From Alphaproteobacteria bacterium (lineage in GTDB: Bacteria; Pseudomonadota; Alphaproteobacteria; CAAHEQ01; UBA3637): a stretch of DNA of 64,000 nt. A model generated the notes under the pieces. That model ran no database searches. It saw nothing but the letters and a program-made list of their open reading frames with translations, and had not been told where the DNA came from. The stretch's first letter is position 1. Every line of letters begins with the position of its first letter. The position numbers were made by a program, and so were the translations under genes. Below, piece by piece: positions 53,646 to 57,744 of this stretch. The stretch spans positions 17,869 to 81,868 of the forward strand of contig JAFPYS010000019.1 of NCBI GenBank assembly GCA_017412085.1, written 5' to 3'.

Positions 53646-53735
53646 GGAGAGATGGTCGAGTGGTTTAAGGCACCGGTCTTGAAAACCGGCGTGGGGGTTC
53701 CCCCACCGAGGGTTCGAATCCCTCTCTCTCCGCCA
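53646..53735 (+). tRNA. tRNA-Ser (anticodon UGA), class II, CCA encoded
   Basis: Acceptor stem GGAGAGA/TCTCTCC. Anticodon stem CCGGT/ACCGG with loop CTTGAAA. Long variable arm GTGGGGG/CCCCCAC. T arm GAGGG-TTCGAAT-CCCTC. Discriminator G plus CCA. Confidence 0.95.
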
Positions 53736-53736
53736 A

Positions 53737-53769
53737 TAAAAAAAAGCCCCGATTGCTCGGGGCGTTTTG
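53737..53769. terminator. Bidirectional rho-independent terminator shared by tRNA-Ser and convergent hydA
   Basis: A-run, then GCCCCG (53746-53751) pairing with CGGGGC (53758-53763) around loop ATTGCT, followed by GTTTTGTT. Confidence 0.65.
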
Positions 53770-53784
53770 TTGTCACATCGTGGT

Positions 53785-55536
53785 TTATTTATTATAAAGC
53801 GGACGCGCTGTATAATGCGTATGCAGCAACTCCTCTGCCTTTTCTGACAGTGGCTCACCCAAATATTCTTTATACAGTTTTTGAATATCTGGATTTTGAT
53901 GTGAACAACGCACTTTTGCTTTTCGGTCATCATTCATAAGACCAGCCTGGCGTGCTTTACGGACGGCATTTGTCACCCCCAAAGGTTGACCACCACCACC
54001 AACACAACCGCCTGGGCATGCCATGACTTCAATTAAATCATATGGTGTTTTTTCACCATTGGCTTTAGCGCGACGAACTTTTTCCAATACGCTGACAACG
54101 TTTTTAATCCCATGAGCAACAGCCACATGGATTTCATTGCCGGCAATATTCAAAGTCATTTCTTTAGCGCCTTCGTTTAAGTTTGTAATTTGATCAAACT
54201 CAAGGTTTTCAATTTCTTTACCTGTGATGAGATAATGGGCAGTTCTTAAGGCCGCTTCCATAACGCCACCCGAGAAACCGAAGATGGTCCCTGCTCCCGA
54301 ATAAGTGCCAAGTGGAGAGTCAGCCTCTTCATCTGGTAAGGCGTTGAAATCAACACCCATCTGTTTAATCATCCGCACCAATTCGCGGGTCGTCAATGAC
54401 ACATCAATATTCTGAATGCCGTCATGAAACATTTCTTTTGAACGTTTGATTTCCCACTTCTTGGCCGTGCAAGGCATAATGGATACAACAATCATGTCCT
54501 TTGGATCTACACCAATTTTTTCAGCATAATATGTCTTGGCGACAGCACCCAACATCGCTTGAGGAGACTTGGCGGTTGAAAAGTTGTCAATCATATCATG
54601 ATCTACTTTCTCCAAATAATCCACCCAGGCCGGACAGCAACTGGTAATCAATGGTAAACGTTCTGGTTCTTTTGTATAACGCTTTACAAATTCACTGCCC
54701 TCTTCCATAATGGTTAAGTCAGCAGCAAAGTTTGTATCAAAGACAGCCTTAAAGCCCATCCGGCGTAATGCTGCGTAGATTTTTCCTGTTACCAAATCAC
54801 CGCTTTTATAACCGAAAGCTTCACCCAAAGCCACACGTACAGCCGGTGCAATTTGGACGACACAAGTTTTTGTTGTATCTTGTAAATAGTCCCATACTTT
54901 TCCTGTTTCGTCAACTTCAGTGATGGCCCCCGTTGGACAGTGCGCCGAACATTGACCACATTTAATACATGGAGAATCTTCCAAAGGTAAATCACCAGCT
55001 GGCGCCATACGTGTATTAATGCCACGCTTTAAGGAACTTAAAGCATAGACATTCTGCACATTTTGACAAACTTGAACGCAGCGACCACATTGAACACATT
55101 TTCTGGCATCAAGTTGGATACATCCTGTGGAATCATCCACCGGTAATTCTTTTTCGGTTGGAGTAATGTTGTCAAAAGCATCTTTATCCAACGCAAATTC
55201 ACGAGCCAAATCTTGTAATTCACAGTTGCCATTTTTCAGACAGCTTAAGCAATCATTTGGGTGACGAGAAAGAATAAGCTCCACAATTGTCTTGCGGGCC
55301 TTCATGATATCTGGATCGCGCGTAATAACTTGCATGCCCTCGGCTGCTGGAGTGCAGCAAGAGCGGAGCATTCTGCCATTAATCTTGACAATACAAATAC
55401 CACATGCCGCTGTTGCTTCCAAATCTGGATGCTTACACAAAGTTGGCACAATTACCTGTGCTTCACGACAAGCGTCTAAAACACTTGTACCTTCTGGGAC
55501 TTTGACTTCAATTCCATCGATTGTTAACGTAATCAT
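53785..55536 (-). CDS. hydA: [FeFe]-hydrogenase catalytic subunit HydA (M3-type, CpI-like architecture)
   Basis: H-cluster motifs TSCCPAW, MPCTAKKWE and EVMACPGGCVGGGGQP. N-terminal 2Fe-2S ferredoxin-like domain. His-ligated cluster region RHPNDCLSCLKNGNC. Two 4Fe-4S motifs, CVQCGRCVQVC and CIKCGQCSAHCP. Probable start at ATG 55536 (MITLTIDG). Confidence 0.9.
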   Translation of the reverse strand: MITLTIDGIEVKVPEGTSVLDACREAQVIVPTLCKHPDLEATAACGICIVKINGRMLRSCCTPAAEGMQVITRDPDIMKARKTIVELILSRHPNDCLSCLKNGNCELQDLAREFALDKDAFDNITPTEKELPVDDSTGCIQLDARKCVQCGRCVQVCQNVQNVYALSSLKRGINTRMAPAGDLPLEDSPCIKCGQCSAHCPTGAITEVDETGKVWDYLQDTTKTCVVQIAPAVRVALGEAFGYKSGDLVTGKIYAALRRMGFKAVFDTNFAADLTIMEEGSEFVKRYTKEPERLPLITSCCPAWVDYLEKVDHDMIDNFSTAKSPQAMLGAVAKTYYAEKIGVDPKDMIVVSIMPCTAKKWEIKRSKEMFHDGIQNIDVSLTTRELVRMIKQMGVDFNALPDEEADSPLGTYSGAGTIFGFSGGVMEAALRTAHYLITGKEIENLEFDQITNLNEGAKEMTLNIAGNEIHVAVAHGIKNVVSVLEKVRRAKANGEKTPYDLIEVMACPGGCVGGGGQPLGVTNAVRKARQAGLMNDDRKAKVRCSHQNPDIQKLYKEYLGEPLSEKAEELLHTHYTARPLYNK

Positions 55537-55538
55537 TT

Positions 55539-57260
55539 TTAGCATCCTTTCTTTTCATCATCTTTTTTCAAGAGGGCTTCATATTCCTCTGGGAAATACT
55601 TCATAGTGGACAACACCGGGTTTGGAGAAGTTTGACCAAGTCCACACAAAGATCCTTTTTGCATGGCAGATCCAATCTCTTTGATTTTTTCCAAATCTTT
55701 ACGTGTCCCCTCGCCTTTGGCAACTTTAGTTAAAAGCCGCAACATTTGATATCCACCAAGACGGCATGGAGCACATTTGCCACAAGATTCATCCACTGTA
55801 AAGCCTAGATAGAATTTGGCGATTTCAACCATGGAATCATCTTCATCCATAACAATCATACCACCAGATCCCATCATAGAACCAATTTTCTTCAATTCCT
55901 CATAGCAAAGAGGCAGATTCAATTCTTTGGCAGGAATCACACCACCGGATGGACCACCAGTTTGTACAGCCTTAAATGGCTTGCCTGTGGAGGTGCCACC
56001 ACCCACTTCTTCCACCATTTCACGAACTGTTGTTCCCATTGGCACTTCTACAAGGCCGGAGTGTTTCACTTTACCAGTCAAAGCGAACACTTTTGTTCCC
56101 TTACTTGTTTCTGTTCCAACGCTGGAAAACCAATCGGCACCATTTAAAATAATTTGTGGTACGTTAGCCCATGTTTCAACGTTATTGATAATTGTTGGTT
56201 TTTGGAACAATCCTTTTTCCGTTGGGTAAGGTGGACGTGGACGCGGTGTTCCCTTGTTGCCTTCCAATGACATCATCAAGGCAGTTTCTTCACCGCAAAC
56301 AAACGCCCCAGCTCCAATACGTAATTCAGCCATAAAGCTAAAATCTGTACCGAAAATATTCTTACCCAAAATACCGGCACGTTTGGCCTGTTTGATGGCT
56401 AATTCAACACGTTCCAAAGCAAGTGGATATTCCGCACGAACATAAAACCAGCCCGAAGTAGCGCCAGTTGCGTAAGCAGCAATGAGCATTCCCTCCAAAA
56501 CGGCGTGTGCGCCACCACCCAAAATACAAGAATCCATATAAGCACCTGGGTCACCTTCATCACCATTACAGATAATGAATTTTTCGCCATCAACCAAAGG
56601 CGCTTTGGCTAATAATTCCCATTTTTTACCGGTTGGGAAGCCGCCACCACCACGACCACGTAAGCCTGATTTTGTAATTTCATCCAACACTTGCTGCGGC
56701 GTCATTTCAAATAAACATTTAATTAAAGCTTGATAGCCGCCATTGGCCACGTACTCGCCCAAATCTTCTGGATCAGATGAGCCCAGATGTTTCAACACCA
56801 CACGACGTTGTTTTGTGAAAAATGGCAATTCCATGGAGAGCTCTTTTTCTTGTAAATGAGGTGCCAATTTCAATTCGGCTTCTGGTTTACCAAGCAAAGG
56901 CTTTACATGCTGTTCTACAATCAAATGAGCAACATCTGGTGTCATTTCTTTATATAAGAAAGGTTTACGGCCTTTAATTTCAATGCGTGTCATTGGGCCT
57001 GCAGCACACAATCCCATACAGCCCGTCGCCACCAAACGAACTTTTTCTGTTAAACCAGCCGTTTCAAGGGCAGCTTTGAAAGCTTCGTAAACACTTTGTC
57101 CCCCGCCAGAATGGCAACTTGTTGCATTGCAGGTAAAAATGGTTGCTTCATATTTAGCGTTTGTTTCTTCGAAATCTTTGCCCATTTGCAAAAGTTTGTC
57201 TTTTTGCATGCGGCCAACCGCTTTTAATTTCTCAATTTGTTCAGGCGTCATTTCAACCAT
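55539..57260 (-). CDS. hydB: [FeFe]-hydrogenase flavoprotein subunit HydB (NuoF-like, NAD(H)/FMN-binding)
   Basis: N-terminal thioredoxin-like 2Fe-2S domain (CNATSCHSGG ... CMGLCAAGP). FMN and NADH motifs GGGFPTGKKWE and CNGDEGDPGAYMD. 4Fe-4S motif ESCGKCAPCRLG ... CGLGQTSPNP. Start at ATG 57260, preceded by AAGGAGGG. Confidence 0.9.
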   Translation of the reverse strand: MVEMTPEQIEKLKAVGRMQKDKLLQMGKDFEETNAKYEATIFTCNATSCHSGGGQSVYEAFKAALETAGLTEKVRLVATGCMGLCAAGPMTRIEIKGRKPFLYKEMTPDVAHLIVEQHVKPLLGKPEAELKLAPHLQEKELSMELPFFTKQRRVVLKHLGSSDPEDLGEYVANGGYQALIKCLFEMTPQQVLDEITKSGLRGRGGGGFPTGKKWELLAKAPLVDGEKFIICNGDEGDPGAYMDSCILGGGAHAVLEGMLIAAYATGATSGWFYVRAEYPLALERVELAIKQAKRAGILGKNIFGTDFSFMAELRIGAGAFVCGEETALMMSLEGNKGTPRPRPPYPTEKGLFQKPTIINNVETWANVPQIILNGADWFSSVGTETSKGTKVFALTGKVKHSGLVEVPMGTTVREMVEEVGGGTSTGKPFKAVQTGGPSGGVIPAKELNLPLCYEELKKIGSMMGSGGMIVMDEDDSMVEIAKFYLGFTVDESCGKCAPCRLGGYQMLRLLTKVAKGEGTRKDLEKIKEIGSAMQKGSLCGLGQTSPNPVLSTMKYFPEEYEALLKKDDEKKGC

Positions 57261-57261
57261 C

Positions 57262-57744
57262 TTATTTGCCCTCCTTTGCGCGCCATTCATTGATAATTGT
57301 TTTCACTTTATCGGGCGTCATCTTGCCATAGGTTACCCCATTGATTACCATCACCGGTGCTAAGCCGCAGCAGCCCAAACAACGGACGACTTGAATATAA
57401 AAAAGCCCATCATCGGTTGTTGTACCGGCGGGGACTCCTAATTCTTTCTCCAACTCTTCTAATACGCTGGCGCTGCCTTTAATATGACAAGCGGTTCCAT
57501 CACAAATGGAAATAACATATTTGCCAGGAGCCTTTACTTTAAAATAGTTATAGAATGTTAAACATTCATAGATTTTTGCCATTGGCACGCCCAAAGATTG
57601 TCCAAGGTACAAGGCTTCATCCCAAGGGACATAACCGAACTGACCTTGCAATTCGTGTAATGCCATAATCAAGGAACCGCGCTTACCATTCCATTTGCGG
57701 ATAATGGCGTCAACTTTTTCTTTATTTTCGTCGTTCATCTTCAT
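57262..57744 (-). CDS. hydC: [FeFe]-hydrogenase 2Fe-2S subunit HydC (NuoE-like)
   Basis: 160 aa. Cys pattern CDGTACH ... CLGCCGLAP is typical of NuoE/HydC thioredoxin-like 2Fe-2S proteins. Confidence 0.9.
   Translation of the reverse strand: MKMNDENKEKVDAIIRKWNGKRGSLIMALHELQGQFGYVPWDEALYLGQSLGVPMAKIYECLTFYNYFKVKAPGKYVISICDGTACHIKGSASVLEELEKELGVPAGTTTDDGLFYIQVVRCLGCCGLAPVMVINGVTYGKMTPDKVKTIINEWRAKEGK

Follow-up and report, generated by a model that had tools for sequence, protein, structure and literature searches.

The 64-kb stretch of DNA analysed here (the window) carries on its minus strand a head-to-tail trio of genes, hydC, hydB, and hydA, which by reading of the open reading frames form a compact operon with no further gene. 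The host is an uncultured gut or rumen alphaproteobacterium with a genome of about 1.1 Mb, whose assembly (G000, the window genome) comprises 967 kb in 21 contigs and is 86% complete. Judged from its sequence, hydCBA encodes a heterotrimeric, flavin mononucleotide (FMN)- and NAD(H)-linked [FeFe]-hydrogenase of the M3 type. The gene hydC (57262..57744, minus strand) encodes a NuoE/HoxE-like subunit of 160 aa with a thioredoxin-like [2Fe-2S] domain (cluster C1; Pfam PF01257 at 1e-46). The gene hydB (55539..57260, minus strand) encodes a Bfu-type NuoF-like flavoprotein of 573 aa, which according to Pfam, PDB alignments, a motif table, a tail alignment, and a tree is devoid of the Zn hinge and the C-terminal 2x[4Fe-4S] domain. 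The gene hydA (53785..55545, minus strand) encodes the M3-type catalytic subunit of 586 aa, assigned through Pfam, NCBIfam, and alignment to HydA1 of T. kivui and A. woodii. Transcripts of hydA were found in none of the RNA runs searched, and the locus is held by DNA gut metagenomes only.

The gene boundaries are tight throughout the operon. The hydB reading frame opens at 57290; its real start is the ATG at 57258–57260, directly past the hydC stop codon (TAA, 57262–57264), and a Shine-Dalgarno sequence AAGGAGG (57270..57276, minus strand) can be read within the hydC 3′ end, 9 nt ahead of this ATG. The gene calls of the HydB homologues P0001 (97% identity) and P0002 (89% identity) are also 573 aa. 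The hydB stop codon (TAA, 55539–55541) overlaps the first hydA ATG, and the second hydA ATG, at 55536, lies 2 nt further; translation from this second ATG, which has the better-placed ribosome-binding site, gives a HydA of 583 aa. With the hydB stop and the hydA start overlapping or 2 nt apart, no domain is hidden by a frameshift and there is no room for a lost one. On the 3′ side of hydA, a GC-rich hairpin (GCCCCGAGCAATCGGGGC) followed by T8 was read as a bidirectional intrinsic terminator (53746..53763, minus strand); it is common to hydA and to a tRNA-Ser(TGA) gene (53646–53735) that converges on hydA.

Four domains of HydB, all encoded on the minus strand, are recognised by Pfam: (i) an N-terminal thioredoxin-like [2Fe-2S] domain (56913..57155; PF01257), in which the C-x4-C...C-x3-C ligands are present (TCNATSC...GCMGLC) and whose cluster is named B5 (Feng 2022), B2 (Katsyv 2023), or, in HoxF, F2; (ii) the FMN/NADH domain of the Complex1_51K/Nuo51 family (56157..56678; PF01512), in which alignment columns identify the segments DPGAYMD (A240 and M242) and GAGAFVCGEE (F320); (iii) an SLBB domain (55938..56090; PF10531) with GGPSG at residues 435–439; and (iv) a four-helix bundle of the NADH_4Fe-4S family (55575..55826; PF10589) with the B1 [4Fe-4S] site (CGKCAPC...LCGLG). 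The chain then ends in ...MKYFPEEYEALLKKDDEKKGC, 31 residues past the CGLG motif. A preliminary description of the locus had already placed the end of HydB about 30 residues past the cluster motif, with no ferredoxin-like motif behind it, and this holds: a motif scan found no CxxCxxCxxxC in the 31-residue tail, and Pfam found no Fer4 domain in HydB. By tail alignment, the terminal LLKKDDEKKGC (55542..55574, minus strand) stands where bifurcating HydBs have the H...CPAGxC Zn hinge and the B3/B4 domain. The Zn hinge (“B2”), which we recognised by its conserved H...CPAGxC motif and not by published ligand numbering, was not found in HydB; the tail alignment has EYEALLKKDDEKKGC where the Fer4-bearing relatives have EYxAHIxDKxCPAGVC. 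In these relatives, the latter segment joins the four-helix bundle to the ferredoxin-like domain and matches the hinge of Furlan, Feng, and Katsyv.

Comparison with solved structures showed how much is missing. The best PDB matches of HydB are B subunits of bifurcating enzymes, namely A. mobile NiFe-HydB (643 bits) and A. woodii HydB (626 bits), with a core about 55% identical to both, followed by C. saccharolyticus NfnB (608 bits), T. kivui HydB (560 bits), and T. maritima HydB (514 bits); Nqo1 scores 390 bits. The alignments to these B subunits stop at residues 562–565 of the query and 525–560 of the chain (560 of 630 for T. kivui), and every chain runs about 70 residues beyond; the solved B subunits of A. 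woodii, T. kivui, T. maritima, and A. mobile are 599, 630, 626, and 597 aa long, respectively. The extra C-terminal module that the preliminary description attributed to the reference HydBs of Thermotoga and Acetobacterium is present in the solved chains. In representatives of the bifurcating radiation, CGLG is followed by about 93 residues with two Fer4 motifs, as against 31 residues and none in window HydB. The short form is not peculiar to the window: Fer4 tail motifs are absent in all 120 nearest homologues (62–97% identity), the named ones of which come from metagenome-assembled genomes (MAGs) of “Alphaproteobacteria bacterium”. A frameshift or truncation of hydB is ruled out by this recurrence and by the hydB stop 2 nt from the hydA start. 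In many HydB homologues of the clade (P0004, P0005, P0007, P0009, and P0072), the tail is variable and charged and closes in a small cysteine cluster (for example, GACKTCGGCK, ECATCSGCGR, GCACNCNCKRG, and GCNVNCTKR), and window HydB ends in a single cysteine (KKGC). Such cysteines could be what is left of the lost domain, or they could form a small new metal site.

HydA is composed, by Pfam, of a Fer2_4 [2Fe-2S] domain, a His-ligated NuoG-type [4Fe-4S] site, a 2x[4Fe-4S] pair, the H-domain, and a small-subunit-like tail. It scores 776.7 bits against NCBIfam NF040763 (cut-off 765), and HoxU is among the NCBIfam matches to its N-terminal region. Its H-cluster motifs TSCCPAW, MPCTAKKWE, and EVMACPGGCVGGGGQP conform to the L1 (TSCCPxW), L2 (MPCxxKxxE), and L3 (ExMxCxxGCxxGGGQP) signatures of group A M3-type enzymes. 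HydA ends in ...LLHTHYTARPLYNK and aligns end to end with HydA1 of T. kivui (571 aa, 553 bits) and of A. woodii (583 aa, 529 bits). With T. maritima HydA (645 aa), the alignment stops at residue 554 of that protein, and the 90 or so residues beyond it show that the extra C-terminal domain attributed to the Thermotoga subunit in the preliminary description is real; the HydA bridge domain is peculiar to Thermotoga, and it is the C-terminal cysteines of HydB that all characterised bifurcating enzymes share (Furlan 2022). The CpI-like end of HydA, also remarked on in that description, is real as an observation, but it is not diagnostic of a non-bifurcating enzyme because HydA1 of T. kivui and A. 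woodii, both proven to bifurcate, ends in the same way. Only the HydB half of the earlier observation therefore carries information. For HydC, the best NCBIfam match is HoxE NF005747 at 150 bits, below the cut-off of 224, and the cysteine pattern CDGTAC...CLGCC can be read in its sequence. Close to the H-cluster, an SPQ motif (STAKSPQAMLGA, about 54480–54515) occurs in HydA of the window's subclade, and SPH (SSCKSPHEIVGA) occurs in the other subclade of the genus and in sister genera.

The residues of the flavin site place HydB with the bifurcating enzymes. Losey 2020 identified residues that separate bifurcating from NADH-only beta subunits: the bifurcating subunits have A/E232, M234, F367, and GGPSG at 427–431 (T. 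maritima numbering), whereas the non-bifurcating subunits, which form a separate clade, have T/S at 232, K/S/A at 234, Y at 367, and no GGPSG, and also have fewer Fe-S domains (no C-terminal 2x[4Fe-4S]). We aligned window HydB with 150 representatives from a search of 1.84 billion proteins, eleven close homologues, and the aligned parts of three solved chains. A240, M242, F320, and GGPSG 435–439 represent the bifurcating pattern and are present in window HydB and in all 11 clade members sampled. HydB thus shows none of the three non-bifurcating residue features and shares with that class only the smaller number of Fe-S domains. In a maximum-likelihood tree (FastTree, LG+G, 416 core columns, 142 sequences), the window HydB clade is a monophylum (support 0.92–0.98) within the radiation characterised by AMF and GGPSG; its near neighbours include the Fer4-bearing P0154, P0125, and P0159, and T/K/Y NuoF-like sequences lie at the tree base. 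This tree does not include the S. wolfei and S. aciditrophicus sequences themselves; the published residue states served to identify their class. At these positions, drift is seen in most of the other tail-less lineages of the tree (STF/GGPTG, ATL, TKY, and SVF/GGHFG) but not in the window clade. At the level of sequence, then, HydB is a NuoF-like flavoprotein of the bifurcating (Bfu/HydABC) lineage, and the simplest reading is that the hinge and B3/B4 were lost secondarily in the ancestor of these gut Alphaproteobacteria. The likeness to syntroph and hydrogenosome enzymes that had been proposed for the complex is contradicted by this residue pattern and by the nesting of HydB.

The comparison with the bifurcating HydABC of T. 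kivui, A. woodii, and T. maritima (PDB 8a6t, 7q4v/8a5e, and 7p5h; Bfu type 1) can be drawn as follows. The subunit set, the FMN pocket signatures, B1, and the N-terminal [2Fe-2S] cluster are the same, and the window clade is nested among these enzymes; by contrast, window HydB has neither the H...CPAGxC Zn hinge nor the domain of about 70 residues with B3/B4 that is thought to dock ferredoxin, the window operon has no HydD, and window HydA has no T. maritima-type C-terminal domain. The cofactors predicted to remain, namely the N-terminal [2Fe-2S] cluster, FMN, and the B1 [4Fe-4S] cluster in HydB and the C1 [2Fe-2S] cluster in HydC, for all of which the Pfam domains (PF10589 and PF01257) and cysteine patterns are present, make up the HoxEF set. 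The design of HoxEF in Synechocystis HoxEFUYH, as described in a preprint (10.64898/2026.06.25.734504), resembles that of the window subunits in its cofactor complement, in having no C-terminal ferredoxin-like domain, and in AFM/F/GGPSG. The partner of the window subunits is an [FeFe] HydA instead of the [NiFe] HoxYH, and their likely ferredoxin is of the bacterial 2x[4Fe-4S] type instead of the plant type. According to the same preprint, HoxEFUYH depends strictly on NADH together with reduced ferredoxin for H2 formation and bifurcates and confurcates without a C-terminal domain, with the exposed clusters E1 and F2 as the proposed sites of transient ferredoxin docking. Absence of the domain is no longer proof that coupling to ferredoxin has been lost.

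We consider, tentatively and as nearly an even call, that ferredoxin is still a co-substrate of the window enzyme, which by analogy with Hox would confurcate without B3/B4. In such an enzyme, NADH would be oxidised at FMN, and electrons would reach the H-cluster by way of B1 and HydA's accessory clusters, with the opposite direction also possible. The classical ferredoxin exit via B3/B4 could not exist; the [2Fe-2S] clusters of HydC and the HydB N-terminal domain, both exposed, would instead give ferredoxin transient docking sites, in the manner suggested for HoxEFUYH, and the minimal flavin/cluster core would confurcate NADH and reduced ferredoxin derived from pyruvate:ferredoxin oxidoreductase (PFOR) to H2. 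Coupling to ferredoxin is favoured because A240, M242, F320, and GGPSG are invariant in a clade whose tail-less counterparts elsewhere have mostly drifted, and because the N-terminal [2Fe-2S] domain is kept with its ligands; in T. kivui, mutation of the N-terminal-cluster ligands cut bifurcation tenfold. Among the genes of the genome are those for PFOR and a soluble 2x[4Fe-4S] ferredoxin. Neither Rnf, nor RnfB/C- or NuoI-type Fer4 proteins, nor [NiFe] large-subunit motifs were found in it, and it holds one H-domain gene only; with no Rnf and no second hydrogenase, HydABC is the only visible sink for reduced ferredoxin.

A separate ferredoxin-domain gene that complements the complex, which the preliminary description had allowed for, did not turn up in the operon. 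The sole small 2x[4Fe-4S] ferredoxin of the genome is encoded on contig C3 among housekeeping genes and is about 40% identical over 50 residues to HydB C-terminal domains, a generic likeness. It was rejected as a detached HydB domain on account of this generic likeness, its location on a different contig, and the closure of the operon by a terminator, and is treated as the soluble partner of PFOR. The PFOR gene itself is split over the contig ends C18:2-2563 and C14:21161-22627, which overlap by about 110 residues and differ there at a few amino acids, a pattern that points to a second PFOR copy or to an assembly broken by strain heterogeneity.

Several lines of evidence weigh against ferredoxin coupling. 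In T. kivui, deletion of HydB residues P565-G630 left low bifurcation activity (Katsyv 2023, PMC10021017), and window HydB, which ends at about T. kivui residue 568, near the P565 deletion point, amounts to a natural version of this mutant. B3/B4 has been linked to the ferredoxin branch (Furlan 2022, Feng 2022, and Schut 2022) and is kept in every biochemically proven bifurcating [FeFe] enzyme (Furlan 2022); the Bfu family is defined by an invariant BfuBC core with six clusters including B2–B4 (Schut 2022); S. wolfei HydB has no B3/B4 and does not bifurcate; and B3/B4-less BfuB is predicted to be non-bifurcating (Zheng and Huang 2024, PMC11406978). The Hox result, moreover, is a preprint on a [NiFe] enzyme with a plant-type ferredoxin, the conservation of the flavin pocket could reflect ordinary constraint on NADH and FMN binding, and, with no maturases in the genome (see below), the hydrogenase activity is itself presumed from the sequence.

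These points lend weight to a simpler enzyme, an NADH:H+ oxidoreductase that would be a natural C-terminal deletion of HydABC, would not bifurcate, and would release H2 from NADH alone at the low H2 pressure kept by partner organisms, ferredoxin being re-oxidised elsewhere or feeding HydA directly without energetic coupling. This alternative, which we regard as a serious but doubtful one, gains from the absence of B3/B4 and the Zn hinge, from the weak bifurcation of the engineered T. kivui deletion, from published criteria that regard B3/B4 as required for bifurcation, from the [FeFe] precedents in S. wolfei, S. aciditrophicus, and anaerobic fungi, and from a gut or rumen habitat with H2-consuming methanogens. 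The NADH-dependent enzymes of Losey 2020 likewise pair a B3/B4-less NuoF-like subunit with an M3-type HydA, use NADH as donor, and come from habitats with H2-consuming partners; their beta subunits differ in having T/S and K/S/A at the NADH site, Y at the FMN site, and no GGPSG, where window HydB has A, M, F, and GGPSG. This difference (none of the three non-bifurcating residue features in HydB) counts against an NADH-only enzyme, together with the position of HydB inside the bifurcating radiation and the retention of the N-terminal [2Fe-2S] cluster, B2–B5 being missing in non-bifurcating homologues including that of S. wolfei (Schut 2022). The report of bifurcation by cyanobacterial Hox without the domain and the lack of any other visible sink for PFOR-reduced ferredoxin in the genome point the same way. 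The preliminary description had inclined towards such a simpler, NAD(H)-linked, non-bifurcating hydrogenase; the domain loss on which it relied is real and lineage-wide, whereas the conclusion drawn from it is opposed by the flavin-site residues, the nesting in the bifurcating radiation, the HoxF precedent, and the ferredoxin sink.

If ferredoxin is indeed a co-substrate, HydABC could be the first case of an [FeFe] hydrogenase confurcating by means of a minimal HydBC core of the Hox kind. Current models put the ferredoxin site of HydABC on the HydB C-terminal domain; here, this domain and the Zn hinge are gone, and the “bifurcating” flavin pocket and the N-terminal cluster are kept. Window HydB is a natural experiment on the parts needed for bifurcation and is directly relevant if the Hox report is confirmed. 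The host bacteria are common in herbivore and human guts, and whether H2 is made from NADH alone or with ferredoxin sets the H2 pressure that permits fermentation, and hence how far these bacteria depend on methanogens and on further consumers of H2.

Operons of this type have been known since 2016, and HydBs without B3/B4 are already discussed in the literature. Among the described systems, the hymABC-like clusters of NuoE, NuoF, and M3-HydA in “Azospirillum sp. CAG:239” and “Acetobacter sp. CAG:977” (PMC4967309) share with the window the kind of operon, the kind of organism, and the combination of PFOR with a short ferredoxin; HydE, HydF, and HydG are reported there (Degli Esposti 2016) but are absent in the window's genus, and the HydB domain loss is unmentioned there. 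The sub-type II BfuABC of Hydrogenedentota and Acidobacteriota (Zheng and Huang 2024, PMC11406978) also has a BfuB without B3/B4 and is predicted from its architecture not to bifurcate, but that type has in addition no N-terminal B5, whereas window HydB keeps B5 and the flavin-site signatures.

The preliminary description had further stated that hydE, hydF, and hydG are absent from the 64 kb, which is correct and an understatement. Model searches of the whole 967-kb assembly gave no match for hydE or hydG, and for hydF only GTPase-domain matches below the cut-off (Der, Era, and similar proteins). Sixteen of 20 congeners carry this HydA, and the three maturases are missing in 19 of the 20; they are found only in G003, clustered on a 207-kb contig. 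In a family survey of 80 species genomes, HydG is missing in 36 of the 40 genomes with a HydABC-type HydA and present in the other four. The HydG-less, HydA-bearing genomes include 28 that are at least 90% complete, and one of these is 100% complete in nine contigs. In the sister genus g2 (genomes of 1.3–2.0 Mb), HydG is present exactly where a monomeric HydA of about 480 aa is (7 genomes with both, 13 with neither), so neither the search nor MAG binning generally hides maturases. We found no description in the literature of this paradox of [FeFe]-hydrogenases without HydEFG in these bacteria. Nothing else in this analysis is as interesting, or as little explained, as the family-wide separation of a strongly conserved [FeFe]-hydrogenase from its maturases.

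The distribution of the maturases among close relatives can be followed at the G003 locus. There, hydG, hydF, and hydE lie in a 15-kb block (L032, G003:C39; contig coordinates 161441-176467) that has no close homologue in the window genome, in which it gives two weak matches of about 31% that are probably paralogous. The block also holds genes for an S41 peptidase, NfeD, an SPFH protein, and a ClpB-like ATPase, and adjoins those for an ADP-forming acetyl-CoA synthetase and a CorC/CNNM transporter; the latter two are retained in G019, where the hyd genes are missing. Contigs of G019 and G004, whose hydA genes diverge from that of G003 by 0.28–0.44 synonymous substitutions per site (dS), span the G003 hydGFE site without hydGFE. 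Gene order is heavily rearranged between G003 and the window genome, and one flank of the block falls on the contig break C8/C21 in the latter. G003 HydG is 82% identical to HydG of the sister genus g3, which fits vertical descent and then repeated loss as a possible history. Three fetched contigs with alphaproteobacterial HydG (80–82% identical to that of G003) come from more distant lineages, with flanking genes 39–80% identical to those of the window genome; HydG identity alone cannot assign lineage, being 77% even to Clostridia.

The hydrogenase genes bear the marks of maintained function. The ratio of nonsynonymous to synonymous substitution rates (dN/dS) of hydA, hydB, and hydC is 0.014–0.05 among maturase-less species at dS >1.1, and it is not relaxed between pairs with and without maturases (G003-G004, 0.019; G004-G019, 0.033). 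The motifs APAVR, TSCCPAW, MPCTAKK-E, GGVMEAALR, and EVMAC-GGC-GGGGQP do not vary among the 15 species compared, of which 13 (66–97% overall identity) have no maturases and two do, the H-cluster motifs being identical in both sets. In addition, contig L049 (ENA contig k141_150237; 5595-11416), from a related, more distant lineage, carries a tail-less hydCBA (158, 558, and 587 aa) divergent from a TM1266-like gene and hydG; at least in this lineage, the tail-less HydCBA type is predicted to be a genuine, matured hydrogenase.

From these observations, the family may run a catalytically competent [FeFe]-hydrogenase without HydEFG, either by another maturation route or with a [2Fe] precursor scavenged from neighbouring H2 producers, a proposal to which we give somewhat less than an even chance. 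A different answer is that HydCBA is not a hydrogenase in this genus: HydA would contain the [4Fe-4S]H cubane only, and HydCBA would serve as an Fe-S electron wire, for example as an NADH:ferredoxin oxidoreductase in place of Rnf. The absence of HydE, HydF, and HydG from the genome and from 19 of 20 congeners, the absence of HydG in 36 of 40 HydA-bearing family genomes, and the lack of Rnf in the genome are in keeping with it, as is the suggestion that maturase-less hydrogenases of the R. rubrum type are inactive or otherwise employed (Degli Esposti 2016, PMC4967309). We nevertheless think it improbable: residues that matter only for the [2Fe] subsite, namely the proton-relay Cys of TSCCP, the Lys of MPCxxK, and the Met of EVMAC, are invariant in the 13 maturase-less species and identical to those of the two maturase-bearing ones, and the two dN/dS values given above for pairs with and without maturases indicate no relaxation. 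Still less credible, and in our view very improbable, is an artefact in which the short HydB results from assembly truncation or gene decay and the maturases reside in the unassembled or unbinned 14% of the MAG. An assembly of 21 contigs at 86% completeness leaves space for this, all the more as the G003 hydGFE block has no window-genome homologue and the counterpart of one flank lies at the C8/C21 break; but tail-less HydB occurs in more than 120 protein clusters, the hydB stop in the window lies 2 nt from the hydA start, HydG is lacking even in the 28 near-complete HydA-bearing genomes, HydA and HydG co-occur without exception in g2, the G019 and G004 contigs cross the hydGFE site without these genes, and the three fetched HydG-carrying contigs fall outside the window's subclade.

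Intact H-cluster motifs without HydEFG are also found in most [FeFe]-encoding archaea and in Giardia and Entamoeba (Greening et al. 2024, PMC11216029); that study proposed an alternative maturation pathway for the archaea and cited Giardia and Entamoeba. The present case differs in concerning a bacterial family, in which close relatives with (G003) and without (G004 and G019) hydGFE exist, and a three-subunit NADH-linked complex. The absence of maturases in dozens of near-complete genomes, with hydCBA under strong purifying selection, bears on a HydEFG-independent route to the H-cluster. If such a route exists, sister species with and without hydGFE at a dS of about 0.3 would offer a tractable bacterial comparison for the suspected alternative pathway; a scavenged [2Fe] precursor, if true, would amount to “H-cluster auxotrophy”. 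Seven maturase-less genomes (G004, G010, G012, G018, G019, G059, and G061) encode three H-domain proteins each, namely HydA and a neighbouring pair (about 490 and about 585 aa) some 3.5 kb apart. Owing to these extra pairs, the maturase puzzle is not limited to HydABC.

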